Assembly: GCA_022824265.1 (NCBI GenBank)
Contig: JAJEAG010000051.1
Coordinates: 12,818 to 76,817, forward strand
DNA: 64,000 nucleotides
Source of the DNA: Candidatus Poribacteria bacterium
GTDB taxonomy: Bacteria > Poribacteria > WGA-4E > WGA-3G
Direction of reading: 5' to 3'
Of this stretch, positions 1,208-39,100 are shown in pieces. The notes beneath the pieces are model-generated. The model saw only the letters and a program-made list of their open reading frames with translations. It made no database searches and was not told where the DNA came from. Numbering within the stretch: the first letter of the stretch is position 1; every line of letters starts with the position of its first letter. A program made the translations under genes and the position numbers.

Positions 1208-2293
1208 ATGCTAATACGCGTGGGTATTGTGGGTACAGGTGGTATATCGCGGGCACACCACAGAACATACAACAAAGTAGATGGTTTTGAGATCGTTGCT
1301 GTATGCGACATCATACGTGAAAAGGCAATAGAAGCCGCAGAAAACTGGAGTGTGCCGAAAAAGAATGTATTCACAAGCTACAACAAAATGCTCGAAATGG
1401 ATGAGATTGACACGGTGAGCGTCTGCACATATAACCAAGCACATCGCAGACCTACTGTCGCGGCGTTGAACGCGGGTAAGCACGTCTTCTGTGAAAAACC
1501 GATGGCAGCAACACTCGCGGATGCAACCGCTATGGTGCGTGCAGCAAAAGCGTCTGGTAAAATACTACAGATTGGCGTTAAAAGTGCATTTACACCACAA
1601 CTTCAATTTGCCAAGAAAGTTATTGATGAAGGTTTCCTCGGAGATATTTACTATTCAGAGTCAGCGAGATGTCGTAGGCGTGGGAATCCGGGACGAACAT
1701 TTATCTACAAAAGGACCGCAGGTGCTGGGGCAATCGTTGACATCGGTATCTATAACCTGCACAACTCGCTTTATGCTATGGGATATCCGAAACCGGTGCG
1801 TGTCTCTGCTATCACCGAAGACTATATCTCAATGCAAGATCCAAGGTTCAAAGATAAAATGGATGTAGAAGAATTTGGCGCAGCGTGGATTCGGTTTGAA
1901 AACGGAGGCGTAATGGTATTCAAGATTTCGTGGGCTGTTCACGCCAACTCACTCGGTGGTCTCTTCTGCCTCGGTAAGGATGCTGGAATATCTATAGACG
2001 GACCGGTTATCTTTGCGGATTCATATAGCAAAGATCTGCAGAAACTTGTTGAATCGGAAGGATTAACTGCCAAAGCGGATCCACCAGAGGGTATGACAAC
2101 AATCAGCGTCTCAGGTTTTCCGCAGGTAGATGTATGGGAAGCACAGATGACAGCATTCCGTGATGCGGTCAATACCGATGGTGTGTCCCCACTTCCACCA
2201 GAAGGCGTTTTGCTTACCAATGTCATCATGGACGGTATTTTTCGCTCACACGAAAGCAGGAAAGAGGTAGCAGTCAAAGTTCCAGAAATATAG
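1208..2293 (+). CDS. Gfo/Idh/MocA family NAD(P)-dependent oxidoreductase
   Basis: N-terminal Rossmann motif VGIVGTGGISRAHH and the EKP motif (CEKPMA); about 360 aa, typical for the family. Confidence 0.85.
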   Translation: MLIRVGIVGTGGISRAHHRTYNKVDGFEIVAVCDIIREKAIEAAENWSVPKKNVFTSYNKMLEMDEIDTVSVCTYNQAHRRPTVAALNAGKHVFCEKPMAATLADATAMVRAAKASGKILQIGVKSAFTPQLQFAKKVIDEGFLGDIYYSESARCRRRGNPGRTFIYKRTAGAGAIVDIGIYNLHNSLYAMGYPKPVRVSAITEDYISMQDPRFKDKMDVEEFGAAWIRFENGGVMVFKISWAVHANSLGGLFCLGKDAGISIDGPVIFADSYSKDLQKLVESEGLTAKADPPEGMTTISVSGFPQVDVWEAQMTAFRDAVNTDGVSPLPPEGVLLTNVIMDGIFRSHESRKEVAVKVPEI

Positions 2294-2360
2294 CATTAAT
2301 GTCGTGGCGTTACATCACTATACGATACTATACGATCAAATATTGCTTGCATTTCAATAT

Positions 2361-2387
2361 AATATCATCTAAACTAACACATCAAAT
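2361..2387 (+). promoter_or_regulatory. Conserved upstream motif AATATCATCTAAACTAACACATCAAAT, copy 2
   Basis: Matches 1155..1182 at about 25 of 27 positions, about 30 nt before the ATG at 2418. An AAGGAG ribosome-binding site follows. Confidence 0.3.
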
Positions 2388-2417
2388 TAATAGTATTTCT
2401 CATAAGGAGATAACAGT

Positions 2418-3506
2418 ATGGCTGTTAAAGTAGGTATTATTGGTACAGGTGGCATTTCCCGTGCACATAGGGGTACCTATGAGAAAGTAGGCGGATTTGA
2501 GATCATTGCAGTGTGCGACATCATAAAAAGTAAGGCAAACCAAGCCGCTGAAGAGTGGGGAGTTCCAAAAAAGAACGCTTTCTCAAGTTACAACAAGATG
2601 CTTGAAATGGATGAACTTGATGCTGTGAGTGTCACTACTTACAATCAAGGACATCGTCGACCAACCGTTGCTGCATTGAAAGCGGGTAAACACGTACTCT
2701 GTGAGAAACCGATGGCTGCGACACTTCCTGATGCGACCGCAATGGTACGGGCAGCTAAGGAAACAGGCAAAATCCTACAAATTGGTCTTAATCCGACGTT
2801 TGATCCGAGACTCCAATTTGCGAGGAAGGTATATGACGAAGGATTACTCGGTGATATCTATTACTCTGAATCGGCAGGGTGCAGACGCCGCGGGAATCCC
2901 GGACATACCTTCATTTACAAAAAGACTGCGGGTGCGGGTGCCACCGTTGATATCGGTGTCTACAATATGCATAGGTCGCTATTTGCAATGGGGTATCCGA
3001 AACCTGTGCGGGTCTCTGCTATCACTGAAGACTACATATCAATGCAGGATCCGAGGTTCCAAGGAAAAATGGATGTTGAAGAGTTCGGTGTGGCATGGAT
3101 CCGATTTGAAAATGGTGGTGTCATGGTGTTTAAAATCTCTTGGGCAGTGCACGCCAACTCACTCGGTGGGAACTTTCATCTTGGTACAAAAGCAGGGATT
3201 TCTTTGGATGGACCAGTTATTTACGCTGATGCATACGAAGGTGATCTCAAGAAACTCGTCGAATCGGAGGGATTAACAGCAGAACCGGACCCACCGGAAG
3301 GCATGACGACTATTCAGTTCTCAGGATTCCCGGCGTCTGATAACTGGGCGGCACAGATGATCGCATTTCGTGAAGCGATCAAAGCAGACGCGCCATCACC
3401 AATTTCACCAGAGGGTGTTCTCCTCACAAATGTAATTATGGATGGTATTTTCCGTTCGCATGCAGCGGGTAAAGAGGTTGCAGTCAAGGTTCCAGAATTC
3501 GATTAG
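2418..3506 (+). CDS. Gfo/Idh/MocA family oxidoreductase, tandem paralog of 1208..2293
   Basis: VGIIGTGGISRAH and CEKPMA motifs; collinear with the upstream gene over its full length with high amino-acid identity. Confidence 0.85.
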   Translation: MAVKVGIIGTGGISRAHRGTYEKVGGFEIIAVCDIIKSKANQAAEEWGVPKKNAFSSYNKMLEMDELDAVSVTTYNQGHRRPTVAALKAGKHVLCEKPMAATLPDATAMVRAAKETGKILQIGLNPTFDPRLQFARKVYDEGLLGDIYYSESAGCRRRGNPGHTFIYKKTAGAGATVDIGVYNMHRSLFAMGYPKPVRVSAITEDYISMQDPRFQGKMDVEEFGVAWIRFENGGVMVFKISWAVHANSLGGNFHLGTKAGISLDGPVIYADAYEGDLKKLVESEGLTAEPDPPEGMTTIQFSGFPASDNWAAQMIAFREAIKADAPSPISPEGVLLTNVIMDGIFRSHAAGKEVAVKVPEFD

Positions 3507-8249: not shown

Positions 8250-9326
8250 ATGGATAAACTAAAAATCGCACATATCGGGACAGGTAACCGTGGAACCAAT
8301 ACATATCTACCACTTATCAGTAAATTGTCGGAGGATATGGAACTTGTTGCTGTATGTGATGTACACGAAGGAAGGGTTGCAGAGCAGGGAGAAAAGTATA
8401 GTGTCCCCGCTTTTACGGACACCGCTGAGATGTTAGAAAAGGCAAAACCGGATATATGTTCTATTGTCATTACACCCAGTAATAACCACATCCCAGGCAA
8501 CATTTGTTCTGAACATGGCGTTAGTTATTGCACGGAAACACCTATAAATACTGATCTTAGTCGCGCTGATACGATGATTGAGATAGCCAAAGAACACGGC
8601 ACAAAATTGGAAGTGAATGAGAACTATTACCGCCGTCCGTCTGAACGGATAAAACGCCAGATGATTCTTGAGGGGATATTCGGAAAGGTTAATGTTGCTC
8701 ACAATGATTTTCGTGGACACGGATATCACGGTATTGGTTTAATCCGAAGTTACGTTGGTTTTGATAATGAACCTGTCAAGATTTATGGGTTCAGTAATAG
8801 GTTTAAGGTTCAGGAACATGAGTGGAGAAAGGGACAACCGAGACGTAAGAATGAAGATTGGCAGCATGCAGTTATTGAGTTTGCTGATGGTGCAGTCGGG
8901 ATTTTCAACTTCTCCAGTCTGTCTTACGGATCACCGTTGCGCGGATTTAATGGAACGAAATTCTATGCGGAACGTGGTATGTGTTTCAGAGACGATGCGG
9001 TTATTCTAAATGATAACGCAGATGAACAACGTCCAGTGACGATTACACGCAAGACGAACAATGTAGATGGATATGAAACGCTTGCTGCACTTATTGCTGA
9101 TACTAACCCGCAAGTAGTTTGGGAAAATCCGTTGCACTATTATCCACTTAGTGATGGTGAAATCACCGTTGCATCTGAATTAATGAGTCTTGTAAATGCT
9201 GTGCGTAACGATACAGAACCAGAATACGGTGCATACAACGGACGAAAAGACCGAGAAATTGATGTTGCAATGGGACGTTCAATTAAAAATAACGGTGCCG
9301 CTGTTGACTTTCCATTGGAATACTAA
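8250..9326 (+). CDS. Gfo/Idh/MocA family oxidoreductase
   Basis: Rossmann motif IAHIGTGNRGTNTY and the family's length; GGAAGGAG ribosome-binding site. Confidence 0.8.
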   Translation: MDKLKIAHIGTGNRGTNTYLPLISKLSEDMELVAVCDVHEGRVAEQGEKYSVPAFTDTAEMLEKAKPDICSIVITPSNNHIPGNICSEHGVSYCTETPINTDLSRADTMIEIAKEHGTKLEVNENYYRRPSERIKRQMILEGIFGKVNVAHNDFRGHGYHGIGLIRSYVGFDNEPVKIYGFSNRFKVQEHEWRKGQPRRKNEDWQHAVIEFADGAVGIFNFSSLSYGSPLRGFNGTKFYAERGMCFRDDAVILNDNADEQRPVTITRKTNNVDGYETLAALIADTNPQVVWENPLHYYPLSDGEITVASELMSLVNAVRNDTEPEYGAYNGRKDREIDVAMGRSIKNNGAAVDFPLEY

Positions 9327-9484: not shown

Positions 9485-10393
9485 ATGGAGGACAATAAAG
9501 TGTTTAAATTTAACCGAACAATTTTCACATTCCTGCTTGTATTTGGTTTGACTGCTACGTTGATGGGTAATGAATGGGCTGACTACTACTTTCCAGACAA
9601 AATCGGAAGTTCATGGGTTTATGTAAATGAAGATGGAGACGAAATAACCCGTACTGCTGTTGAGGGAGAAGAGGTCGACGGAACGACGTATCGCGCCTTT
9701 ACTTATGAACCTGCAATAGATGATTGGGAAAAATATCAGTATGTTATTCATCCTTATCTGTATCAAGTCGGTGAAGAATGGATTACATTTCTTGTTGGCG
9801 ATGAAATAGAACAAGCAACCAAGTCTATCCTTGAGAAAAAACTTAATGAAACAATTGCACTCATGCAGGAACAGATTGCTGGACAACTACCTCCAGGAAT
9901 TACAATTGATTTTGATTTTGATGTTGACCCGCAAGCCCAAGATTTATTCTATCTATTTCCACTTCCGATTACCTATAATGAAGAATGGGTCGCAATGCAT
10001 TTGGACATAACAGTAGATATGACAATGGATATTCAAGGAGCACCTGCTGAACTTCCTGCAGAACTTCAAACAATTACTTCTACTACGAGTATTGAGGAAA
10101 CAGGGGTTATTTTAGGAACAGAAACTGTTGAGACTGAAGCCGGAACCTTTGATGACTGTTTAATAATTGAATATAAAACTAAAACAACAACGGATACAGA
10201 TTTACCCCCAGAATATAAACAAATGATACCAGAAACGCCAACCAACGAGGCAACGACAACGTTATGGTTAGCTCCTAATGTCGGTATTGTCAAATTCAGA
10301 AGTGAAAATGAGAATAGCGATGATGTAGCTACCTTGGAATTAACAAGTTATGAGATCATATCTGATGAATCTGATGAGGAAGAAAAAGAATAA
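9485..10393 (+). CDS. Secreted acidic hypothetical protein, paralog A. The true start is probably the GTG at 9503.
   Basis: Signal-peptide-like FKFNRTIFTFLLVFGLTATLMG, a GGAGG box 11 nt before the GTG at 9503, and an acidic C-terminal tail SDESDEEEKE. Confidence 0.6.
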   Translation: MEDNKVFKFNRTIFTFLLVFGLTATLMGNEWADYYFPDKIGSSWVYVNEDGDEITRTAVEGEEVDGTTYRAFTYEPAIDDWEKYQYVIHPYLYQVGEEWITFLVGDEIEQATKSILEKKLNETIALMQEQIAGQLPPGITIDFDFDVDPQAQDLFYLFPLPITYNEEWVAMHLDITVDMTMDIQGAPAELPAELQTITSTTSIEETGVILGTETVETEAGTFDDCLIIEYKTKTTTDTDLPPEYKQMIPETPTNEATTTLWLAPNVGIVKFRSENENSDDVATLELTSYEIISDESDEEEKE

Positions 10394-10448
10394 TTACTTG
10401 GTTTGCTGAATCTTCTGGATATAAATACAATCTTTTAAGGATAACTAC

Positions 10449-11426
10449 ATGTATAAAAGAACTTGTTTTGTTACTACAATCTTTCTTGTCCTATTTTTGT
10501 GTACAGCACTACGAGGGAATGAAACTTTACAACTTTATTTTCCAAGCACTGTAGGAAGTTTTTGGGTCTATGCAGATCAAGATGGGAATGAGTTCGTGCG
10601 TCATGCAATCGAAGGTGAAGAAATAGACGGTACGGTTTATAACGCATTCAGTTATAACCCTGAATTGGAAGATTGGGTTGATTTTAACCGTCATACAGTG
10701 CCATATCTGTATAATGTAAATGATGAGTGGATTAGTTTATTAGTCGGTGAGGAAATAGAAAACGCTGTTCATGCACGTCTCACCAAAGAATTTGAAACTT
10801 TCTCTGCATTGGTAAAGAATTTATTTGCGAATCTGATTCCGCCTGAAGAGAATGTTACCGTTGACTTTCTATATGATATAGAGGTTGATGCAGATGAACA
10901 TTTCAATTTTTTGCCAGCAGATGCATCTATTGATGATGAATGGGAAACCGTTGAGATAACTGCTACAGTCACCATGTCGTTTGAATTTCATGGTTTACCT
11001 GAGGAATTAGCAGCAGCAGCACCTCCGATACCCCCTGTCACAGCGACTTTTTCTATTCTTGAAACAGGGATAATCCTTGATACAGAAACAGTTGAGACTG
11101 CTGCTGGCACATTTGAAGATTGTTTAAAAATAGAATATCGTACTGAGACCGAACTCACAGCTGACCAACAAGAGGACCCTGAACCTGATAACCCACCCGG
11201 TGAAACAGTTACAACATTATGGTTAGCACCTAATATCGGTATTGTGAAGTATCATCAAGAAGCACAAAAGATGTTTCTTAATGTAATGTCTGACAAAGAA
11301 TTTGCTGAGGCATCAGTACCTGCGGAAGAAGCAGCCGAGATAACTGCTACAACAATCAAGTCATTTGAATTATCAAATTACGAGATTGCCTCTGATCCCG
11401 CACAAGAAGAGGATAGGATCGAATAA
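10449..11426 (+). CDS. Secreted acidic hypothetical protein, paralog B
   Basis: Signal peptide MYKRTCFVTTIFLVLFLCTALRG. Shares motifs YFP..GS.WVY, EGEE.DGT.Y.AF.Y.P, ETG.IL.TETVET.AGTF.DCL.IEY and TTLWLAPN.GIVK with paralog A. Confidence 0.6.
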   Translation: MYKRTCFVTTIFLVLFLCTALRGNETLQLYFPSTVGSFWVYADQDGNEFVRHAIEGEEIDGTVYNAFSYNPELEDWVDFNRHTVPYLYNVNDEWISLLVGEEIENAVHARLTKEFETFSALVKNLFANLIPPEENVTVDFLYDIEVDADEHFNFLPADASIDDEWETVEITATVTMSFEFHGLPEELAAAAPPIPPVTATFSILETGIILDTETVETAAGTFEDCLKIEYRTETELTADQQEDPEPDNPPGETVTTLWLAPNIGIVKYHQEAQKMFLNVMSDKEFAEASVPAEEAAEITATTIKSFELSNYEIASDPAQEEDRIE

Positions 11427-13168: not shown

Positions 13169-13429
13169 ATGTTTCCCATGGCATATTCACCCGATGGACG
13201 AAAACGCATTTTAGATTATGTTGCAGCTGGCGGGAAAAAATCTGAAGCATCCCGTCTGTTTTCCGTCGCACGCTCAACTATTGATAGGTGGTTAGCAGCT
13301 GAGAACCCGTTTGCAATTAGAAAAACAGGACCCAAAAAAATGAGAGTGATTGATGAGGAGGCAATCAGAAAACATGTTGCTGATTTCCCCGACTTAACAC
13401 AAAAAGAACGTGCTGCACATTATCATTAG
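13169..13429 (+). pseudogene. IS630/Tc1-type transposase N-terminal HTH fragment (classical ISY100-like type)
   Basis: AYSPDGRKRILDYVAAGGKKSEASRLFSVARSTIDRWL resembles ISY100-type N-termini. Truncated after about 86 aa. Confidence 0.6.
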
Positions 13430-13975
13430 CTAATCCGTGGACAGGTAAGGAAATGTCCGCTGTCCAAATAGAATTGCTGTAAATCGCGGAGATCTACTAT
13501 GTGCTGGTTATGGATAATTCTCGTCATCATAGTGAACATAGTCATAAACTGGACTCTGATAATTACAACGCCGGAGGGCTGGCTTATAGGAGTGATTGCT
13601 ATAATTGTCATAATTCTCATCATATCTTATAGAATAAATAGAAACTATTGACTATCTATTTCCGTGTCCTCCCCTTATCCTGGGGCACCACGCATTCGTT
13701 TCAGCGATATGCAGCACACGTTCTAAAAATAATACGTCGCCTTATACAACTTGCCCGATCAGCTGAGTCAATCTCCCGCAGTGCATCAACGAAAATCCTG
13801 TTTACCGCATTAACCTGATTGAAATCCGTGATATTGCCATACCTCGTAAAATGAAATTGGTACTATAGTTGACATTGAAATTAAAGAGACACATTTCTAT
13901 AGGAGTGATCTCCGAATCGCGACAAAACTCACTGATAGTCAGGGATCGGAGTTTCCTCCTACAACTCAAAATGTC

Positions 13976-14314
13976 TTGTTAATTCTAAAGTTCACTATAG
14001 TATGTGATAACCTAAATACACACACCCTTTCATCCTTGTATAAAGCATTTCCTGAGGCAGAAGCACAAAGATTGTGTGCTCGTTTGGAAATCGTGTATAC
14101 GCCTAAACACGGCAGTTGGTTGAATATTGCGGAGATAGAACTGAGTGTGCTAACACGACAGTGTTTGTGTCGGCGTATTCCCGATATAGAAACATTACAA
14201 AGAGAGACGCAGGCGTGGCAAAAACGACGAAATGCAGAGCAAAAGCAAGTAGATTGGCAATGGACCATGGCAGATGCGCGCATCAGATTAAAACATTTAT
14301 ACCCAAAAGATTAG
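13976..14314 (+). pseudogene. IS630-family transposase C-terminal DDE fragment, continuation of 12750..13124
   Basis: VCDNLNTHT and TPKHGSWLNIAEIELSVL motifs. Reading ...KRVIL then VCDNLNTH gives a contiguous transposase, interrupted here by an 850-bp insert. Confidence 0.7.
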
Positions 14315-14393: not shown

Positions 14394-16025
14394 CTACGAA
14401 TTATTATCTGTTTTGCCGTAGCCACCACCCCCAGGTGTTTCAATCTGAATAACGTCACCTTCGCGAGCAGAAAGAGTAACTTTCCCTTCAAGCAGTTGTT
14501 CCTCCTCGTCACGGATTAGCACATTCCGTCCTAACTGACCCGATTCCCCACCTTGCAATCCATAAGGATGAAACATTCTCCGTTCAGAAAGGATAGTAAC
14601 CTCTGCATCAGTAAGAAGCCTGAAAGAACGCACAATCCCGGACCCACCTTGAAATTCTCCTGCTCCACCAGTACCACGCCGAATCGAATAACTCTCAACC
14701 TGTAGCGGATAACTCGTTTCAATTGTCTCAATAGGTGTATTCATTGTATTCGTCATGTGTGTATGAATGGCATCAATTCCATCGCAAGTTGGACGTGCAC
14801 CCATACCACCAGCGATGGTCTCATAATAGGTAAAATCCCGTCCTCGTAATACATCATGTCCACCTATTGTAATGTTATTCATAGTACCGCTACTTGCAGC
14901 AGGAATTAGGTCAGGACACGCCTGCGCCAACGTACCAAAAAGCACATCAACGATACGTTGTGAGGTCTCAACATTTCCACCAGCTACTGCAGCTGGAAAT
15001 TTAGCATTGATAACACTACCTTCAGGAGCAATAATTTGGATCGGTTCCATACATCCAGCATTGGATGGCACATCAACGCCAGCAACACATCGGAACGTAT
15101 AAAAGACAGCTGAGACTGCAATTGCATATATCGCATTAACGGAGCCTCGCACCTGTTCTGATGTACCTGTAAAATCTACAACTGCTGTGTCATCCTTAAT
15201 TTCAATAGAAACCCGTATTTCTATCGGTTCATCAGTTATTCCATCGTTATCCATATAATCCGAAAATGTATAGATTCCATCATTAATTTCTCGTAAGAAT
15301 GATCGCACCATGCGGCTGGAATAGGAGCATAACGCTTGCATGTAAGACTCGATTTCTGGAACACCGTATTTGGACACCAATTCCTGTAATCTACGTTCAC
15401 CGATACGGTTGGCTGCGAGTTGTGCCTCCATGTCCCCATGCCGTTCTGTTGGTGTCCGTACATTGGCAAGAATGAATTCCCACATGTCAGAATCCAGTTC
15501 ACCACCTCTGACAAGTTTTACTGGTGGAATACGGATACCTTCCTGAATTACACTCGTCGCTAAAGGCATAGAACCGGGAGTCATACCACCCACATCTGCG
15601 TGATGTGCGCGGTTCGCTACATAGAACGTAGGACAAACCGCAGATTCTTCTCCAAAGACTGGGGCAACCAAAGTTATATCTGGAAGGTGTGTACCACCAC
15701 GATATGGATCATTAAGCACGATCATATCTCCAGGTTCCATTTCGGTATGTTCTATTGCTGCCAAAACCGAAAGCGGCATTGAACCCAGATGGACAGGTAT
15801 ATGTGCAGCCTGTGCTACCATCTGTCCTGAACCATCAAAAACTGCACAAGAGAAATCAAGACGTTCCTTGATGTTCGGTGAGAAAGCAGTCCGTTGCAGT
15901 GTAACACCCATCTCTTCTGATACTGAAGTAAGGAGATTTTTATAGAGTTCTAATTTTATTGGGTCAAAGTTCATGAGATGTTGGTTTAGGTAAATTGTGT
16001 TTAGAAGTATCTTGCATTTTAACAT
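14394..16025 (-). CDS. hyuB: Hydantoinase B / 5-oxoprolinase family protein (HyuB). The true start is possibly the internal Met (MNFDPIKLELYKN, ~nt 15972).
   Basis: FDPIKLELYKN...LQRTAFSPNIKERLDFSCAVFD and NDPYRGGTHLPDITLVAPVF signatures. Confidence 0.85.
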   Translation of the reverse strand: MLKCKILLNTIYLNQHLMNFDPIKLELYKNLLTSVSEEMGVTLQRTAFSPNIKERLDFSCAVFDGSGQMVAQAAHIPVHLGSMPLSVLAAIEHTEMEPGDMIVLNDPYRGGTHLPDITLVAPVFGEESAVCPTFYVANRAHHADVGGMTPGSMPLATSVIQEGIRIPPVKLVRGGELDSDMWEFILANVRTPTERHGDMEAQLAANRIGERRLQELVSKYGVPEIESYMQALCSYSSRMVRSFLREINDGIYTFSDYMDNDGITDEPIEIRVSIEIKDDTAVVDFTGTSEQVRGSVNAIYAIAVSAVFYTFRCVAGVDVPSNAGCMEPIQIIAPEGSVINAKFPAAVAGGNVETSQRIVDVLFGTLAQACPDLIPAASSGTMNNITIGGHDVLRGRDFTYYETIAGGMGARPTCDGIDAIHTHMTNTMNTPIETIETSYPLQVESYSIRRGTGGAGEFQGGSGIVRSFRLLTDAEVTILSERRMFHPYGLQGGESGQLGRNVLIRDEEEQLLEGKVTLSAREGDVIQIETPGGGGYGKTDNNS

Positions 16026-16069: not shown

Positions 16070-17029
16070 ATGAATAAAGTTAACATCGCTTTAATCGGTG
16101 CAGGCGGGATGGCAAACGGTGTGCATTATCCATCTCTATCAGAATTTGAAGACGTGAATCTTGTAGGACTATGTGATCTCGTAGAATCCAAACTCTATAC
16201 AACCGCAGAGAAATTCCAGATAGAACACACATTTACTGACTATCGGAAAATGCTTGAGCAAACAAATCCAGATGCTGTCTACATCTTGATGCCACCACAA
16301 CATCTGTTTCCGCTTGTTATCCACTGTTTATCACAGAAACACCATGTGTTCATTGAGAAACCACCTGGCATCACGCTGCATCAAACAAAGGAAATGACAT
16401 TAGCAGCAGAAAAAAATGGATGTAAAACAATGGTAGGTTTCAACCGTCGTTTTATTCCACTCATGCAAAAAGTCAAGCAGATTGTTGAAGAAAACGGACC
16501 AATAATCCAATGCATGTCAACCTTCCACAAAAACTCACCAAACGCTCTATATTATGATGGCGTTATTGATGTATTGACATGTGATGCTATACACGCTGTA
16601 GATACACTTCGTTGGCTCGGCGGTGGTGATGTCCAAGCAGTTGCGAGTGACATCAACCGTTTCTATTCCGAACGAGAAAATAGTTTCAACGCACTTGTTA
16701 AGTTCACAAGTGGAACGTCCGGATATTTATGCACCAATTGGGCAGTCGGTCGTCGAATCCATACCTTTGAGATGCACGCTCAAAGTATCTCCGCTTATAT
16801 TAATCCAGATGCAGGAGGTAGTGCTTTAATCCATACATCGGAAGGTATAAACGAAATAACGACTGAGGAAGCTGCCGATTCTGACGCAACCCACAAAACC
16901 TATGGTTTTTATGGAGAAAGTAGACATTTTATAGACTGTATTCAACAAGATAAACAACCATTAACCTGCTTCGCTGATGCTGTCAAAACAATGGAACTTG
17001 TTCAAGCTATTTATCAAAATCGCATCTAA
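16070..17029 (+). CDS. Gfo/Idh/MocA family oxidoreductase
   Basis: VNIALIGAGGMANGVHYP Rossmann motif and IEKPP motif. Confidence 0.8.
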   Translation: MNKVNIALIGAGGMANGVHYPSLSEFEDVNLVGLCDLVESKLYTTAEKFQIEHTFTDYRKMLEQTNPDAVYILMPPQHLFPLVIHCLSQKHHVFIEKPPGITLHQTKEMTLAAEKNGCKTMVGFNRRFIPLMQKVKQIVEENGPIIQCMSTFHKNSPNALYYDGVIDVLTCDAIHAVDTLRWLGGGDVQAVASDINRFYSERENSFNALVKFTSGTSGYLCTNWAVGRRIHTFEMHAQSISAYINPDAGGSALIHTSEGINEITTEEAADSDATHKTYGFYGESRHFIDCIQQDKQPLTCFADAVKTMELVQAIYQNRI

Positions 17030-17343: not shown

Positions 17344-18279
17344 ATGAAGCGGATAAAAATTCCCGGAGTTGACCAAGAAATATCACAACTAATTCTGGGA
17401 ACTATGATGTATTCACCTGACAGTTATGATCACAGCACGAAAATGTTAGATACATTCTTTGAAGCAGGTGGGAATACACTTGATACAGCACACATTTATG
17501 GCGGTGGTAATAGCGAAAGATTAATTGGTCAATGGATGCAGGAACGCGGAAATAGAGATGAGGTATTTCTGATAGATAAAGGTGGACACCCTTATGGGGG
17601 TATGCCGAACCGTGTTTCTCCAGAATACATAAAACAAGACCTTGATGAAAACCTGAGCCGTCTTAACACCGATTACATTGATCTATATATGCTCCATAGA
17701 GATGATCCTGAGATGTCGGTGAGTACCATCATTGACTATCTGAACGAGGAGATAGACGCAGGACGTATACGAACCATCGCCGCTTCAAATTGGCAACCCA
17801 ACCGCATCGTTGAGGCAAATACTTATGCATCAGATAATAACCTTAGCGGTTTCGTTGCATGTAGCAACAACATAAGTCTTGCTGTTCCAATGGAACCGAT
17901 GTGGGGAGGTTGTGTCAACGTTGATGATGCTGCCCGACGTTGGCATGTTGAAAGTCAATTCCCGCTTATGCCTTGGTCATCGCAAGCACGCGGCTTCTTC
18001 AGCGGTGCATTTACACCTGAGAACCGAGATAATGGCGATATGGTGCGAGTGTATTACAATGATGACAACTTTGAAAGACTCAAGCGCGCAAAACAATTAG
18101 GTAAAAAATACGGATTTTCCGCAATTCAGGTCTCCCTTGCTTATTGCGTCCACCTACCTTTTCCAATCTTTCCAATTGTCGGTCCCGCTAACTTGGAAGA
18201 GATGGCATCTTCACTTGGGGCATTAGAACTTGCGCTCTCCGATGACGAAATGGCATGGTTAAACCTTGAAATAGACTAA
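17344..18279 (+). CDS. Aldo/keto reductase
   Basis: LGTMMY...FFEAGGNTLDTAHIYGGGNSERLIG signature. Confidence 0.85.
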   Translation: MKRIKIPGVDQEISQLILGTMMYSPDSYDHSTKMLDTFFEAGGNTLDTAHIYGGGNSERLIGQWMQERGNRDEVFLIDKGGHPYGGMPNRVSPEYIKQDLDENLSRLNTDYIDLYMLHRDDPEMSVSTIIDYLNEEIDAGRIRTIAASNWQPNRIVEANTYASDNNLSGFVACSNNISLAVPMEPMWGGCVNVDDAARRWHVESQFPLMPWSSQARGFFSGAFTPENRDNGDMVRVYYNDDNFERLKRAKQLGKKYGFSAIQVSLAYCVHLPFPIFPIVGPANLEEMASSLGALELALSDDEMAWLNLEID

Positions 18280-18427: not shown

Positions 18428-19537
18428 ATGAAAACTCAAATTTTACACATAATATTCATACTACAATTTCTATTACTCCCATTCGGTATCCTACACAGTG
18501 CATTTGGACAGGAAAGTTGAGGCGCATGAAGCAATCCCGCAATCCCGCGTGGTGGGTCGGGTGAAGTCAGTTTGACTTCAGAAGGAAAAAGATTTCAAGC
18601 TTCTGTTAGCATGATGCGTTGGTATGACGCTCAAGGTGGACACTTTGAAGATGAAGGTGTCTTCATCGACCAAAATGGAAACCGAAGTATAGATACGGTT
18701 CCAGAACATAGACATCATGTCAATTTAAACATATACCGTATTGACGTTGCATTAAAATATCTTCTTGGTTCACAATGGATAGTGGAAGCAAACCTCCCGT
18801 ATGAATCCAAAGTACAAGAGGCAAGTGTAGAGAAGATTGAAGACATTGAATATACCCAGGAACAGTGGGATGCGATTATAGAAAATGGACGTATCCATCA
18901 TCGCAATGAAACTTATGCTGGTCTAACAGACTCAGAAGTTTTTCTTGGACATTATCGAGTTGGTGTCCTTGCAGAGAAAGATTATTTTGTGGGTCGTATC
19001 GGAACATCTATTCCATTTGGTAAAACTGAGGAAGACCCGTGGAAACTTGGAGAAAAGGGAGAGGAACATCTCCATATCCAATTTGGAACTGGCACTTTTA
19101 ACCCTATTTTTGTCTTACACTATAGCATACCTGTCTATAAAGGATTGGCAACACATTCCAGCCTACGGACAAAATTGCCGTTCTACGAGAACAGCAAAAC
19201 ATATCGTGGTTCGAATGAACTAACATATTCTTCTGGGTTGAATTATCGTCTTAATAAATGGATTTCCTTCAGAGCGGGTTACCTTGGGATATATCAATCC
19301 TTTGCACATTGGGATGGTGAAATAGACAAAAATACAGGACTCCTTTTCGGTATGGCATCTATGGGAACATCTATCTCAACACCGTTCAATGTACCGTTAT
19401 CAATATCGTTGCTGTTGCCCTTGCATCAAAAAACGCTTTATGATGATACTGACGCACTTGATGTCGTAAAATTCGAAGAAAGCGATGCATTTGAATTCGG
19501 TCCATTGGTCTCTGTTACGGTATTATATTCATTTTAG
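18428..19537 (+). pseudogene. Outer-membrane beta-barrel-like protein gene. The signal-peptide segment is separated from the mature part by two in-frame TGA codons.
   Basis: ATG at 18428 encodes MKTQILHIIFILQFLLLPFGILHSAFGQES. TGA at 18518-20 and 18527-29 lie in the same frame as the ORF from the TTG at 18572 (321 aa). That ORF has alternating hydrophobic strands and a C-terminal ...VTVLYSF. Confidence 0.45.
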
Positions 19538-19556: not shown

Positions 19557-19991
19557 ATGATAGCACACAGCAGAGGAGTTCAAATATTTCAGGGCATTAT
19601 TAGCGTAATTTTGGGTGGAGTCAGTATACTACTGGCTATATTGTTACGACAATCCGCATATTCAACGATGACACTGATTACTTTTTTCGTTGTCGGCATT
19701 ACCCTAATTTTCTCAGGGGACTACCTAATAAATCCGTTCGGTCTACCAGTAAATTCATTGAAGCAACAACTTTTTGGTGAAATGTGTTTGATTGCTTATG
19801 GTGTGTTTTATGTTAATATTGGTGTATCCCGTTTGTTACAACCTCTCGTTGTATATAACATATCACAATATCTACATCCAGTTTGGATTCGCAGAGGCAT
19901 AAGCACCGTTGGAATATTATTAATCATTGGTGGAATTTACGGTATTTATCAATTACTGCAAGTAGGTTTGGCTGAACCCCCACAAGAATAG
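19557..19991 (+). CDS. Small integral membrane protein, hypothetical
   Basis: Four hydrophobic helix-length segments; no recognised family. Confidence 0.4.
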   Translation: MIAHSRGVQIFQGIISVILGGVSILLAILLRQSAYSTMTLITFFVVGITLIFSGDYLINPFGLPVNSLKQQLFGEMCLIAYGVFYVNIGVSRLLQPLVVYNISQYLHPVWIRRGISTVGILLIIGGIYGIYQLLQVGLAEPPQE

Positions 19992-24086: not shown

Positions 24087-26018
24087 ATGAATCCACAACC
24101 CTCGCAAACTACCGAGGTCATCACAAAAAAAGCGATAATTGTTGGTTTAATCCTCGTTATCGTCAACGCATACTGGGTCGGAATAGCAAGTGAACTCTGG
24201 TATGCAGTCTACACACTTGTTTCCCCTTTTTCAAATGCAGTCTTCACGCTGGTAGTCCTACTCGCACTGAATGTTATCCTCCGCAAAATAACACCTCGTT
24301 TCGCTTTTACACCTGCCGAATTGCTACTCATCTACATCATGGTAACGATGGTCTCCACCATATCGGGGCATGCGATGATGGCAATCCTGATGGGTACTCT
24401 TGCCCACCCGTTCTGGTTCGCCACACCAGAAAATGAGTGGGCACAATTCTTTTTACACCACATCCCCGAATGGTTAACGGTACATGAATCCGAATGGTTA
24501 GCTGGTTATTATGAAGGTGAATCAAGTCTATATCTACCTGAGCATATACGTATATGGGTAAAACCTGTACTTATCTGGTCAACGTTTATTCTATTTCTAT
24601 ACGGATCGTTGCTGTGCTTAGGACTGCTGATACGAAAACAGTGGATGGAACGCGAAAAATTAAGCTTTCCATTAACACAGTTACCTTTGCAAATGACAAC
24701 CAACCGCAGTTTCTTCACTACGCGATCGCTTTGGATAGGGTTTGGTATAGCAGCATTGATACGTGTAATTGCAGGTTTGCACGACCTATTTCCAGTAATA
24801 CCCGCTTTGCCTTCAAGTTACCGACTTGATAGACATCTCACAGACAGACCTTGGAACGCTGTCGGTTATGTCTCAATGAACTTCAATCTCGCAATCGTTG
24901 GATTGACCTATTTCATGCCACTTGATCTTGCCTTCTCAACGTGGTTTTTCTTCTGGCTTACACGTGCTGAACGAGTGATTGCAAGTGCAGTCGGTATAAC
25001 AAATATCAGCAAACTACACCTCAATGATCGCGCATCGGGGGCTTGGATAGGAATTGCTGTGCTGACTTTATGGATGGGACGTAGACACATCATAAGGTTT
25101 TTTAGGCATGTTGTCGGACTTGAACGAGGTGATGATAGCAATGAACCTATATCCTACCGAACAACAGCGATTCTTACTATTCTCAGCATGGGTGCAGTAT
25201 TCGTCTTCTGTTACATCGCAGGGATGTCGTTATGGGTGATTGGAGTCTTTTACGGGTTGTTTATTGCATTTGCCTTAGCAATCGGACGAGTTCGCGCTGA
25301 ACTTGGACCACCCTACCATGAGGTAATTGGTATTAATCCACGTCAAATCATGGTCAATACATTCGGTTCGCGTAGCTTAGGAGCAGCAAACCTAACCGTA
25401 ATGACGTTTCTTTACGCATTTAACCGATGCAACCGTTCACATCCAATGCCAAACCAAATTGAATCGCTCAGAATCGGTGATCAAGCAAAGATTCCTGGTA
25501 AGACCCTACTACTATGTATGGCACTTGCAATCGGTGTTGGTGCATTTGCAACGTTCTGGACATATCTGCATGTAGGGTATCATTACGGTGTACTGGCGAG
25601 GTGTCAAGGTCACGTTGGACACTTCGGCTGGGAAAGTTTCAATCCGCTTCAGAGTTGGTTGCAGCATCCAAAAGAAGCGAATGTCAGCGCAATCGTATTT
25701 ATGGGTGCAGGTTTCGTTTTTGTGTTCCTACTTAATTTCTTAAGGACACGTCTGCTATGGTGGACACTACATCCATCTGGATACGTCCTTTCTGGTGCGT
25801 CATGGGGTGGTCTTATCTATTTTTGGTTTCCTGTGATGGTCAGTTGGTTCATAAAGTTTATGATTCTACGATTTTCTGGATGGCAAACCTACCGCAGAGC
25901 AATACCGTTTTTCCTCGGATTAGTTTTAGGTGATTTTGTACCGCGTAGTATACTCAGTATAATTAGTTTTGTGATGAATCTATATATGCCTTCTTCTGGT
26001 GCTGGACATACCCTATAA
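24087..26018 (+). CDS. Large polytopic integral membrane protein (at least 12 predicted TM helices), uncharacterised family
   Basis: 643 aa with many helix-length hydrophobic segments rich in W/F/Y. No catalytic motif recognised. Confidence 0.55.
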   Translation: MNPQPSQTTEVITKKAIIVGLILVIVNAYWVGIASELWYAVYTLVSPFSNAVFTLVVLLALNVILRKITPRFAFTPAELLLIYIMVTMVSTISGHAMMAILMGTLAHPFWFATPENEWAQFFLHHIPEWLTVHESEWLAGYYEGESSLYLPEHIRIWVKPVLIWSTFILFLYGSLLCLGLLIRKQWMEREKLSFPLTQLPLQMTTNRSFFTTRSLWIGFGIAALIRVIAGLHDLFPVIPALPSSYRLDRHLTDRPWNAVGYVSMNFNLAIVGLTYFMPLDLAFSTWFFFWLTRAERVIASAVGITNISKLHLNDRASGAWIGIAVLTLWMGRRHIIRFFRHVVGLERGDDSNEPISYRTTAILTILSMGAVFVFCYIAGMSLWVIGVFYGLFIAFALAIGRVRAELGPPYHEVIGINPRQIMVNTFGSRSLGAANLTVMTFLYAFNRCNRSHPMPNQIESLRIGDQAKIPGKTLLLCMALAIGVGAFATFWTYLHVGYHYGVLARCQGHVGHFGWESFNPLQSWLQHPKEANVSAIVFMGAGFVFVFLLNFLRTRLLWWTLHPSGYVLSGASWGGLIYFWFPVMVSWFIKFMILRFSGWQTYRRAIPFFLGLVLGDFVPRSILSIISFVMNLYMPSSGAGHTL

Positions 26019-27079: not shown

Positions 27080-28123
27080 ATGACACCACTACTTTCTGTC
27101 AATTCCATAACAAAACAGTTCGCATCAACTCCCATTGTAACGGATGTCAGTTTTGATGTATATCCAGGAGAAATTTTCGCACTATTGGGAGCAAGCGGGT
27201 GTGGCAAAACAACTACTTTACGCTTGATTGCAGGCTTTGAAAAAGCAGACTCAGGCACTATTTTAATGGGAGATCGTGTTCTTGAAGACCAAAATATACA
27301 TATTCCATCCGAATTACGAGGAATTGGGTTTGTTTTTCAAGATTACGCACTTTTTCCTGACAAGAACGTGATACATAACGTTGCATTCGGACTTAGTCGC
27401 AAGTTGTCAAAAAATGTGCGGTACACGACTGCCATGGATTCCCTTGAGCGAGTCGGCATTGCACACTTGCATGAGCGAATGCCACATCATCTCTCTGGTG
27501 GAGAACAGCAACGAGTCGCATTAGCTCGTTCTCTGGCAACGCAACCGAAGCTGCTGCTATTAGATGAACCTTTTTCAAGCCTTGATGCGGGTCTTCGTCA
27601 AGAAACAAGAGAAGAGGTACGTGAATTATTAAAAGCAGCAGAAATCACTGTGGTACTTGTAACACATGACCAAGAAGAAGCATTGAGTTTTGCTGAACGT
27701 GTGGTAGTCATGAACAGCGGTACTATTGAACAGATCGGCACTCCGGAAGAGGTATACCAACACCCAAAAACTGTATATGTCGCCAGATTTCTTGGGACAA
27801 CGAATATCATTGAAACAGACATCAAAAACGGAGCTGCAGAAACACCATTTGGAACGTTGCCAGTAGATTCTCCAAACACAACACAAGCACTCCTTTCAAT
27901 TCGTCCAGAACATATTCGCATAGAAAAACATATCCCTGATACTGGTGATAATAAATTTGGTCGTATTACTGCCCGTGAATTCAAAGGACACGATTTAACA
28001 TACCGCGTTGAAGTTGAAGGAAAACCTTACTTTATCCAAACCGACTACCAACAGCACTTCAAAGTCGGTGATGCGGTAACTTTGAAACCAATTGAAGCGG
28101 TTGTTATTGAGGATAAATCGTGA
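27080..28123 (+). CDS. ABC transporter ATP-binding protein with C-terminal TOBE-type domain (PotA/FbpC/CysA/MalK-like importer ATPase)
   Basis: Walker [10 protein letters not shown], signature [13 protein letters not shown], Walker B LLLLDEP, and a ~110-aa C-terminal extension. Confidence 0.85.
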
Positions 28124-31429: not shown

Positions 31430-32431
31430 ATGGCAAAAATACGGATGGCACAATACGGCACGAAACACGGACACGCACGTGGAAAACTGCAGGCAATGCA
31501 TGCTAATCCTAATGTAGAGGTAGTGGGTGTATATGAACCAGATGAAGAACAACGTGCGAAACTTCAGGAAAATGGAAGTTGGTCTTACGATGTGCGTTGG
31601 TACAATGATGCCGCTGAAATGTTAGAGGACGAATCAATCATTGCTATTGCTTCTGAGGGAAACAATGCCGAAAGCTTAAATCAAACTCAAGAGATTGTGA
31701 ATGCTGGTAAGCATGTATGGTATGATAAACCCGCAGGAGAAAACTGGGAGCAGTGGCAACGCATCATCAAGACTGCACAAGAAAAGTCTTTATTGGTGCA
31801 AATGGGGTATATGTTAAGGTATCATTCCAGTTTTAAGAAAGTGACCGACTGGGCAAGATCAGGATTTTTGGGAAATGTATTCTCAGTTCGCGCGCACATG
31901 TCCACAAATATATCACTGGAAGCACGTACACGTATTAGTCAACATATCGGTGGTATTTTCTTTGATTTAGGTGGACATGTTCTTGACCAAATTGTCTGGA
32001 TGATGGGGAGACCTGAAAAGGTCACCAGTTTTCTACGCAATGATGGAGGGTCAGTTGAACCATTCAAAGATAATACTCTCACTGTCTATGAATTTGAGAA
32101 AGGGATGGCGTTTATCACAATTTCTGCTTTGGAACCACGTCCAATGGCACGAAGGTTTGAGGTATACGGCACTGAAGGTAGTGCTATCATTGTTGAACCG
32201 TTTGAACCCGGACACACGATTCGTCTCTGCTTACAAAGTGCAAAGGATGGATATTCACAAGGTGAACAAATTGTCAATATAGATGGAGAGAGTCGCCAAC
32301 GATTGTATGAGTTGGAGTTGGATGCGTTTTTGGCGACAATCGCAGGTACGCAAGAACCTGATAGACCAGTAGAGCATGAATTGTTAGTACAGGAAACACT
32401 TTTGCGCGCAACAAGTGTTATTCCAAACTAA
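31430..32431 (+). CDS. Gfo/Idh/MocA family oxidoreductase
   Basis: IRMAQYGTKHGHARG N-terminal nucleotide-binding motif and WYDKP (EKP-like) motif. Confidence 0.75.
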   Translation: MAKIRMAQYGTKHGHARGKLQAMHANPNVEVVGVYEPDEEQRAKLQENGSWSYDVRWYNDAAEMLEDESIIAIASEGNNAESLNQTQEIVNAGKHVWYDKPAGENWEQWQRIIKTAQEKSLLVQMGYMLRYHSSFKKVTDWARSGFLGNVFSVRAHMSTNISLEARTRISQHIGGIFFDLGGHVLDQIVWMMGRPEKVTSFLRNDGGSVEPFKDNTLTVYEFEKGMAFITISALEPRPMARRFEVYGTEGSAIIVEPFEPGHTIRLCLQSAKDGYSQGEQIVNIDGESRQRLYELELDAFLATIAGTQEPDRPVEHELLVQETLLRATSVIPN

Positions 32432-36160: not shown

Positions 36161-39100
36161 ATGAGAATACTGTGTAATTACATAATAATCAGTTGTTTGT
36201 TGATATTTATTTCTGTCGGTATTGTTGACGCACAACAGAATCTGGCACAACAAGCTTATGCAATCATGGAGCAATCCTGCCTTATATGCCACGGGGAGAA
36301 CGGCTCATATACAGAGGCACTTATCATTGAATACACAGCACTCATTGATGACGGAAAAGTCGTTCCTAGTGATCCAGACGGTTCTGTGTTCTATCAAAGA
36401 CTCATCGAAACGAATATTGCTAAACGTATGCCGCTCGGACAGCCTGCGCTTGATCCCGCTGCGATTGAAACGATACGTCAATGGATTGCAGCAGGCGCAC
36501 CCGATTGGGATGCCGTGTCAAGACCAGAGACTAACTTCATTACAACTGATACTATGTTTGAAACGATTGAGAACCACGTCAATTCTCTTGCTCCACGTGA
36601 TAAATTGTTTGCACGTTATTTTTCGTTGACACATCTCTATAACGCAGGTGAGACAACTGAAGCACTTCAAGCATATCGGCGTGCCCTTTCGAAACTGATC
36701 AATAGTCTCTCTTGGGGTCGTGAAGTTGTTAAACCAATTCCTATTGATACCGAAGAAACCATTTACTACATTGATCTCCGAGACTATGAATGGGATGTGA
36801 GAAACGACGCATGGACACAGGTTGAGCAGGCATATCCCTACAAAATGATGTACGATGCACCAACACAGATACATCTCCGCGAAAAACTAACGACTCTACA
36901 GCAGGAGATGAACTGTGAAGTTCCGTTTGTTCATGTGGATTGGTTCATCGCAAATGCTTCCTTACCACCCCTCTATCACGATATTTTGCAGCTGCCACTG
37001 ACAGACCGAGAACTGGAAGAAAAACTTGGGATATCAGTTAAAGAAAACATACAGAACGCACCAAGAAAACGTGTCTGGCGTGCAGGTTTCAGTGATTCTG
37101 GAGTCTCAAATCACAACAGAGTTGTAGAACGTCATAATTTTCAACACGGTGCATACTGGAAAAGTTATGACTTCGCGGGAAGTGCCGATTCACAGAATAT
37201 ATTTACCCATCCGCTTAATTTTACACATGACGGTGGCGAAATTATCTTCAACCTACCGAACGGATTACAAGCGTATCTTTTGGTAGATAGTAACGGTAAC
37301 CGGCTTGATGTAGCACCCACAGATATCGTTTCTAATCCTGCTGCAAGTGATCCTGCCGTCCGCAACGGTCTTTCGTGTATCGGTTGCCACACAGAAGGGA
37401 TGAAGACGTTTGAAGACGAGGTGCGTGCTGTAGTTGAACAGGCAAATAATCCGCTTTTTAACAAGGCACGAGCATTAGAACTCTATGTGGAACAAGAGAT
37501 AATGGATGAGTTTGTTGAAGAGGATACGCTACGTTATAGGAACGCTCTTGAGAAAGCGGGTGGTATATTTGGGGGTATTGAGCCGATTCAACGTTTCCAT
37601 GAGGTGTTTCAAGGTGCGCTTGATGCTGCACATGCTGCAGCTGCTGTTGGGTTAGAGACCGATACATTCCTTGAGAGAATAAGCAAAAGTCCAACTTTAC
37701 AAAACTTATTAGGGGCATTGGTGTTAGATAACGGTGCCATCAAACGAGACGCATGGACATCGGCTTTCCACGATGTGATTTCTGCGCTGAATTCTCCTGA
37801 TACCGTACTGCCACCCATAGAACAACCAGAACGTATACCAGGTGCTTCAGTGAATATACCCGATCTGAACCTTCGCGCTGTAATTGAAGAAGCACTCGGT
37901 AAAGCGATGGGTGAGGTTATTACTGTTGAGGATATGGAAAGTTTGACGAGATTTGTTGGGAATGACAAAGGCATTCAAGATTTGACAGGTGTTGAATTTG
38001 CAAAAAATTTAACCTACTTTGAAATTCGACGTAATATGGTCAACGATCTCACTCCAATTGCAAGTTTAACAAATCTGAGTGGATTACGTGTGCAAGGAAA
38101 CAATATATCAGATATATCTCCAATAATTGACCTTAAAAGAATAGGAACACTTGAAATATATGATAATCAAATTTCTGACATTTCCCCAATTGGGGAACTA
38201 ACGAACTTATTTTGGTTGTCTATGACTAATAATCCAATCAATGATATCTCACCACTTGCTAATTTGAAAAAGCTGAACGGAATTCGATTGAATTTCGAAG
38301 ATTCTACTGATTTTTCTCCTATAGCAGAATTAACAAACTTAGAAAGGTTTTTCTTATGGGGTGCTGGTAAACCTATACCTGATTTGACACCCTTAGCTAA
38401 CTTACAAAAATTAAAAATCTTAGACCTACGCGGCGAAGGAGTACCTGATTTGTCTCCTATTGCACAATTAGACAACTTGGGAAGATTTGAATTTTGGGGA
38501 TCGGGTGAAAACCTACCTGATCTGTTACCTTTAGCAGAATCAAATAATTTGAAGGAATTATGGGTCATAAATTGCGGAATCACAGATCTAACTTTTATAG
38601 AGAACTTCACAAGTTTGGAAAGGTTAAATCTTGAACGGAATAATATAACAGATGTGTCACCGTTAGCAAAATTGACAAACTTAAAATGGCTAAAACTTAC
38701 AAACAATCCAATATCTGACTTTTCACCTTTAGCAGAATTCGCACAAACTACTAACGTCCTCACAGGAGATGTTGCAATTAATGATCCCAACCTACGTGCG
38801 GCAATTGCAGTAGCACTTGGTAAAGGCTACAGTAGGATTGTTTCAATTACATTGGAAGAGTTGGCAACTTTGACTCACCTTGATGCTAAAAATGATAATG
38901 AGTCACAGAATGAAAATATCAGCAATTTAACGGGTTTGGAGTTTGCAATAAATCTAAGTTATTTGAATATTGCTGGCAATTCAGTATCAGATTTAACACC
39001 AATCGAAGGTTTAACAGAACTTAGTTTCTTAGATGCTCAAGATAACTTAATATCGGATACAATACCACTTAAAGGATTAACTAATCTACGAGGTTTAATT

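Follow-up and report, generated by a model that had tools for sequence, protein, structure and literature searches.

Two in-frame UGA codons that probably encode selenocysteine in an outer-membrane barrel protein of Poribacteria

How can an outer-membrane protein be made from a gene in which two TGA codons, lying in the same frame, separate the signal peptide from the barrel? This question is raised by a locus in a 64,000-nucleotide stretch of Candidatus Poribacteria DNA, the whole of which we refer to as the window and whose relevant features are collected in Table 1. An initial annotation, made from the sequence itself, had described an ATG start followed by a signal peptide, a pair of in-frame TGAs only two codons apart, and a 321-residue open reading frame with no signal peptide of its own that ends in ...VTVLYSF, as expected for an outer-membrane beta-barrel; each of these points was borne out. 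The ATG at 18428 opens a stretch of 27 signal peptide-like residues followed by Q-E-S, the two TGAs (at 18518 and 18527) enclose the codons GGC GCA, and the second is followed by 335 open codons up to the TAG, while the mechanically called reading frame downstream of the TGAs starts at a TTG and covers 18572-19537. If both TGAs are read as selenocysteine (Sec), U31 and U34 form a U-G-A-U (UxxU) motif and, with signal peptidase I cleavage predicted before Q28, would occupy residues 4 and 7 of a mature N-terminus reading Q-E-S-U-G-A-U-S-N-P-A-I-P-R-G-G.

The domain that follows carries invariant His-rich motifs (HRHH, IHHR and HLHIQFGTGTFNP) and a C-terminal F. Its signal peptide, 12-stranded barrel fold and C-terminal aromatic residue are those of a COG4313/PF13557/FapF-like channel, and this kinship is at the level of the fold only. 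At E <= 0.01 no Pfam family, PF13557 included, matched the window protein or its relatives P0134 and P0126, and weak precomputed matches to PF13557 or PF13505 were found in only a few homologues. A profile search of PDB sequences returned no relative.

Table 1. Coordinates of the candidate selenoprotein gene, its predicted elements and its neighbours in the window.
Feature	Position	Strand	Remarks
Aldo/keto reductase gene, conserved upstream neighbour	17344..18279	+	Pfam PF00248, E = 2e-55
Complete candidate selenoprotein gene	18428..19537	+	369 codons including 2 putative Sec codons; stop is TAG 19535-19537
Signal peptide, 27 aa (MKTQILHIIFILQFLLLPFGILHSAFG)	18428..18508	+	Read directly from the sequence
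First UGA, probably read as Sec (U31)	18518..18520	+	TGA in 81/81 sequences; aligned with the first Cys of CPAC in homologues
Second UGA, probably read as Sec (U34)	18527..18529	+	TGA in 81/81 sequences; aligned with the second Cys of CPAC
Conserved SNPAIPRGG linker, then 12-stranded outer-membrane beta-barrel domain	18530..19534	+	
Hairpin 1, candidate SECIS	18536..18561	+	Conserved stem CCCGC (18536-18540) with GUGGG (18552-18556)
Hairpin 2	18562..18580	+	U-GAAGUCA-GUU-UGACUUC-A, 8 bp, GUU loop
144-aa multi-pass membrane protein gene, 20 nt downstream	19557..19991	+	No Pfam or NCBIfam match

Conservation of the TGA codons and their cysteine counterparts

We searched with the read-through product, placing X at both TGA positions, and 476 homologues were returned. 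The best 120 of these cover only 83-90% of the query and have ragged starts and no signal peptide; they are unnamed or "hypothetical", and where an organism name is present it is Candidatus Poribacteria. One homologue (P0045) starts with MIPRGG, directly after the position of the second TGA. We then scanned genomes, taking one per species, which yielded 80 loci, all from Poribacteria. The comparison of orthologues that the initial annotation had proposed gave a uniform answer: upstream and in frame, all 80 encode a signal peptide followed by Q-E-S-stop-G-A-stop-S-N-P-A-I-P-R-G-G, and neither stop is TAA or TAG in any of the 81 sequences. The signal peptides themselves diverge widely in sequence (for example MKTQILHIIFIL... 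and MIIRILSLLFCLQFIFLPLGFA), keeping their signal-peptide character and their frame, and those of the orthologues end in A/G-x-A/G before the Q. A double TGA between signal peptide and barrel was also found in six distant relatives (31-41% identity). In five of the truncated database entries (L084-L087 and L089; 31-39% identity), from organisms that range from low GC to about 70-85% GC, the signal peptide leads in every case into TGA-(G/P)-A-TGA-S-N-P-x-x-P. The UGAs are thus kept as UGA across orthologues, with coding conservation on both sides, and the remainder of the gene is under purifying selection.

When 1.84 billion cluster representatives were searched exhaustively with HMMER, 380 relatives were identified, among which those with a complete N-terminus reveal what stands at the UGA positions elsewhere in the family. 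In P0134, P0136, P0126, P0152 and P0260 the signal peptide is followed by C-P-A-C-S-N-P, in P0187, P0241 and P0254 by C-A-G-C-(R/S)-N-P, and these CPAC and CAGC cysteines align exactly with the two TGAs of the window's TGA-G-A-TGA-S-N-P. Among 150 representatives, 11 have such a Cys N-terminus, 136 have no N-terminus, and two have TGA read as W. In the latter two entries (P0199 and P0228, with WGAW and CSLW) the W residues correspond to TGA in their DNA, the motif being TGA-GGC-GCT-TGA at locus L081 and TGT-AGT-CTC-TGA (C-S-L-TGA) at L082; overall, an in-frame TGA was present in all seven truncated or W-type members checked at the DNA level. Homologues with Cys aligned to the UGA positions are therefore at hand, and the correspondence of U-P-A-U to C-P-A-C in these alignments is what classically marks a selenoprotein that has Cys homologues. 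As a separate observation, the L082 gene (87-710) contains a further in-frame TGA inside the barrel, at a non-conserved position, and its C-terminal third diverges from its relatives as if frameshifted; this short contig could be of low quality, a pseudogene or from a TGA-recoded organism.

RNA hairpins downstream of the UGA codons

The coding sequence immediately after the UGAs can form two hairpins (Table 1), both of which RNAalifold predicts independently. In an alignment of 78 distinct sequences, 95% of the cells of hairpin 1 are paired, and its variable pair 28-42 is kept in 72 of the 78 (GC 47, GU 23, AU 2). The family stem is lengthened to AUCCCGC/GCGGGAU in most Poribacteria, and the minimum-energy fold in the window is a two-tier alternative, CCCG/CGGG plus CCCGC-GUG-GUGGG. 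For hairpin 2, 97% of cells are paired, with U-A replaced by C-G in 3 sequences and by U-G in 28. A further candidate, stem B (columns 32-37 with 41-46 around a GUG loop, using a second CCCNC copy), is part of the minimum-energy fold in the window and in L086, L055, L062 and L071; it was rejected as the conserved hairpin, and stem A preferred for the family, because stem B has an internal mismatch in 47 of the 78 sequences.

Within Poribacteria the covariation is statistically weak by shuffle controls, since the hairpin region hardly varies. Greater weight as evidence for the putative hairpins is carried by synonymous constraint and by recurrence in distant Sec forms. Synonymous-codon entropy, expressed as a ratio to the gene-wide expectation, is 0.72 for the whole gene and 0.37 over the 17 informative codons that follow the UGAs, the third lowest of 182 contiguous windows of codons; in hairpin 2, where the ratio is 0.13, synonymous constraint is stronger than anywhere else in the gene. 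Equivalents of hairpin 1 occur at the same position with other sequences in L081 (CCCGUCU/AGACGGG), L082 (CCCCGUU/AACGGGG) and L084 (CCCCGU/GCGGGG), and equivalents of hairpin 2 in L081 (GAGGUC/GGCCUC), L087 (GAGGUCG-GUG-CGGCCUC), L084 (CUGGCA/UGCCAG) and L089 (GGAGGCUG-GUG-CAGCCUCC).

No Rfam family, SECIS families included, was matched, either at the gathering threshold on the whole window or at E <= 10 on 18480-18640. In addition, three of four Cys forms have a hairpin after CxxC (L083, at about 2290-2375, with a 10-bp stem and z = -3.8; L091; and L092), and because Cys forms fold hairpins too, with fold-energy z-scores that overlap those of Sec forms, structure alone is no proof of a SECIS. 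The hairpins of the Cys forms may be fossil SECIS elements left after Sec-to-Cys conversion, or structures with another role.

The spacing bears on how two Sec codons might be served. In E. coli fdhF the UGA is followed about 11 nt later by the minimal SECIS, and the apical loops of bacterial SECIS elements are usually found 16-37 nt from the UGA. Hairpin 1 starts 15 nt after the first UGA and 6 nt after the second, while hairpin 2 starts 32 nt after the second UGA and has its loop 40 nt from it, which falls outside the usual range. Since hairpin 1 would be at least partly unwound when the second UGA, 6 nt away, is in the A site, we infer that hairpin 1 serves the first UGA and that hairpin 2, or a refolded hairpin 1, serves the second.

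Selenocysteine recoding and its alternatives

Taken on the sequence evidence, both TGAs are very probably recoded to Sec, giving a single exported outer-membrane protein. The bacterial machinery (SelA, SelB, tRNA-Sec and SelD) would recode both UGAs under the direction of the mRNA hairpins that lie just downstream within the coding region; the signal peptide would then lead to export and to insertion in the outer membrane as a 12-stranded COG4313/FapF-like barrel, leaving as mature N-terminus a flexible tail whose UxxU pair would be the selenium version of the CxxC of homologues.

Pfam annotation of about 50 ORFs of the window showed housekeeping and metabolic genes and identified no selA, selB or selD and no other recognisable selenoprotein gene, a tRNA scan of the 64 kb found no tRNA, tRNA-Sec included, and a mechanical scan of the window for further TGA-split frames gave only chance-like pairs. 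In Ca. Poribacteria WGA-3G, however, whose genome carries a TGA-GA-TGA gene of this family (L075), two copies of COG1921 SelA and one of COG3276 SelB have been recorded (Slaby et al. 2017, Table S4, PMC5649159). SelA and SelB co-occur in most sponge-symbiont bins (PMC5649159), and Sec-containing group 4 hydrogenases from Poribacteria were listed in a 2026 study (PMC13582414).

The alternative that survives best, unlikely as we judge it to be, is programmed readthrough without Sec, in which a near-cognate or suppressor tRNA (Trp, Cys or Arg) would decode the UGAs with stimulation by the hairpins. Conservation of the double UGA, of the frame and of the downstream hairpins is what any recoding mechanism needs, this one included. 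However, both UGAs align with the cysteines of CxxC, as would be expected for Sec; a Poribacteria genome that has the gene also has annotated SelA and SelB; and if two UGAs only three codons apart had to be passed by leaky decoding, very little product would result, even though every Poribacteria genome sampled retains the gene. Local stop-codon readthrough was among the options listed in the initial annotation, and its premise, that the TGAs are passed within one protein, holds up; with Cys aligned at both positions, the passage itself is best explained as Sec recoding.

Somewhat less probable still, and in our view very unlikely, is that the TGAs are real stops, so that a separate 30-codon leader peptide and a set of regulatory hairpins would precede a barrel translated from an internal start (TTG 18572 or ATG 18611). 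This is how gene callers annotate the family, and the hairpins do sit between the two ORFs. Export of the barrel nevertheless needs a signal peptide, and the sole one lies upstream of the TGAs, where the leader evolves like a signal peptide and not like a conserved regulatory peptide and is always in the frame of the barrel. Furthermore, conservation of SNPAIPRGG begins right after the second TGA, upstream of any possible internal start, and the Cys forms are continuous proteins.

The other options of the initial annotation, a recent pseudogene and a sequencing or assembly error, have nothing in their favour beyond the stops in an otherwise intact gene, and both are excluded for practical purposes because the same two TGAs, in one frame, recur in 80 independent assemblies from many projects and different studies, short-read and long-read, as well as in distant lineages, with purifying selection on the rest of the gene. 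Reassignment of TGA throughout the genome (code 4 or 25), for which the P0199 and P0228 entries, translated with W at these codons, might be cited, is just as negligible, since homologues have Cys, not Trp or Gly, at the UGA positions, the well-conserved genes of the window (41% GC) are intact under code 11, and TGA terminates 7 of its 36 stop-to-stop frames of at least 250 codons, as an ordinary stop does and in keeping with the earlier view that global recoding is unlikely.

Possible function, relation to known families and genomic context

With Sec recoding as the preferred reading, the surroundings of the gene offer some indications of what the protein may do. The aldo/keto reductase gene lies upstream on the same strand in all 80 Poribacteria loci, and the gene for the 144-aa membrane protein lies downstream on the same strand in 73; the latter is a possible operon partner of the barrel gene. 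In 38 loci (within L030-L080) about 3 kb separate these two genes; in L031 (5035-8294), the only one of the 38 to be annotated, the interval contains genes for an ABC permease and for a 732-aa solute-binding protein of family 5 (Dpp/Opp/Nik type), a combination suggestive of an uptake route. Neither of these two genes is present in the window's clade.

The Cys forms, in turn, are associated with proteins of thiophilic-metal handling and of thiol redox. An HMA domain lies at the C-terminus of P0136 (E = 5e-11), thioredoxin and cupredoxin domains are found in P0242 and P0211, and P0267 has a thioredoxin domain; a thioredoxin-HMA gene lies immediately upstream of the Cys form in L083 and L090, and the gene adjoining the Cys form in L092 encodes HMA-DUF4396. 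At L090 (712-6004), on a probable Bacteroidota contig with a Por_Secre_tail gene nearby, the Cys-form barrel P0126 ends a mer-like cluster that comprises an HTH regulator, a MerT-HMA fusion, a DsrE-like gene, an HMA protein, an HMA plus pyridine-nucleotide-disulfide oxidoreductase (the MerA architecture) and a CsoR-like repressor; there the barrel would be the outer-membrane component of a mercury or copper resistance-type locus.

On the strength of the metal genes around and fused to the Cys forms, we propose a role in handling thiophilic metals: by analogy, the chances are about even that a thiophilic metal or metalloid (Hg, Cu or similar), while passing through or docking at the outer-membrane channel, is bound with high affinity or undergoes redox chemistry at the UxxU pair, which would act in dithiol-like fashion. 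For Poribacteria this is an extrapolation from distant Cys forms, since their loci contain no metal-resistance genes; no mer genes (merR, merT, merP, merA) flank the window gene or its Poribacteria orthologues, and a location within such a cluster was found only for the distant Cys form P0126. More tentatively, and with the odds in our estimation clearly against the combination, each Sec codon might have its own hairpin, as tandem SECIS elements for codons 9 nt apart, or one hairpin might be used twice, with a diselenol/diselenide pair on the flexible tail capturing or gating a thiophilic metal or metalloid (Hg, Cu, possibly selenium), in what might be a universal selenium-dependent envelope component of the sponge-symbiont phylum Poribacteria that is also present in other marine lineages.

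Several known proteins share parts of this arrangement. Selenoprotein L has a UxxU motif thought to form a diselenide redox pair, in a soluble thioredoxin-fold enzyme. The channels closest in fold, COG4313 (PDB 4rl8; PF13557 Phenol_MetA_deg) and FapF (PDB 5o65), have no significant sequence match to the window protein, and neither is known for a CxxC/UxxU N-terminus or for His-rich motifs; unlike in these channels, the N-terminal tail of the window protein is modelled as disordered, not as a plug, and is placed confidently in neither structure model. Inner-membrane helical or periplasmic CxxC/Sec metal-passing proteins likewise move thiophilic metal across a membrane, whereas the window protein is an outer-membrane barrel without flanking mer genes.

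A 2026 review of the prokaryotic selenoproteome counts 119 families (PMC13188914). Its Table 1 includes two outer-membrane selenoproteins, the GSU2204 MtrB/PioB-type barrel (NF041027) and the FCYXU-type TonB-dependent receptor (NF049945), and three UxxU families, a Prx-like oxidoreductase, the HMA-type NF041115 and an FmdB-family protein; no COG4313/FapF-like barrel is among them. The two outer-membrane proteins are likewise exported barrels with predicted Sec, but they are larger and unrelated, with one Sec each and no N-terminal UxxU. In NF041115 (UxxU_metal_bind; PMC13188914), which is linked to heavy-metal handling, a UxxU with two Sec likewise stands in place of a metal-binding CxxC, yet the protein is a small soluble ferredoxin-like HMA domain and not a membrane barrel; the HMA domain fused to the Cys form P0136 gives a sub-threshold match to this model. 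The Prx-like UxxU oxidoreductase (PMC13188914, Table 1), whose UxxU is thought to be a diselenide redox pair, is a soluble thioredoxin-fold protein, as opposed to the disordered tail of a channel. At E <= 0.01 the window protein matched no NCBIfam model, NF041115, NF041027 and NF049945 included, and neither it nor its Cys homologues matched any NCBIfam selenoprotein model. There is precedent for UGA being decoded as Sec in families with Cys homologues, for the UxxU motif and for Sec in the handling of metals. What appears to be undescribed is the family itself, together with the placement of its motif in the N-terminal tail of a channel of the outer membrane and the combination of two UGAs with two hairpins.

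The database entries examined for this family are either Cys forms or N-terminally truncated "hypothetical proteins" without a signal peptide. Recognising the two probable Sec codons would restore an exported protein in all 80 species-level Poribacteria genomes retrieved and in other marine bacteria, and would add to the prokaryotic selenoproteome a family that joins a very small number of outer-membrane selenoproteins and of double-Sec proteins. With its two UGAs spaced three codons apart and followed by two conserved hairpins, the gene would also allow the handling of closely spaced Sec codons by bacterial SECIS and SelB to be examined in a natural setting, and the protein would connect the use of selenium with the cell envelope of dominant sponge symbionts and, via the contexts of the Cys forms, with the handling of mercury- or copper-type metals.

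Elsewhere in the window, pieces of an IS630-family transposase (HTH_Tnp_IS630 at 13169-13426 and DDE_3 at 13976-14311), spread over several short ORFs, lie in an ORF-poor stretch (13169-14314, + strand) that looks like a decayed insertion sequence; it adjoins a hydantoinase B gene (14394-16025, minus strand) at the place where a hydantoinase A partner might be expected. A 2,015-aa protein (36161-42208, +) with many leucine-rich repeats, cohesin and dockerin domains and a FlgD-Ig/CHU_C-like C-terminal domain (type IX secretion-like) is one that we take to be eukaryote-like, belonging to a type of repeat protein known from sponge symbionts. Five genes for GFO/IDH/MocA-type oxidoreductases within the 64 kb (1208-3506, 8250-9326, 16070-17029, 31430-32431) fit the expansion of COG0673 to 93 copies in Poribacteria WGA-3G (Table S4, PMC5649159). 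Two tandem paralogous genes (9485-11426, +; 302 and 325 aa) each encode a C-terminal DUF3108-like domain, and a 643-aa protein with DUF6785 and DUF6784 (24087-26018, +; E = 1e-163) is encoded upstream of an ABC ATPase gene (27080-28123).
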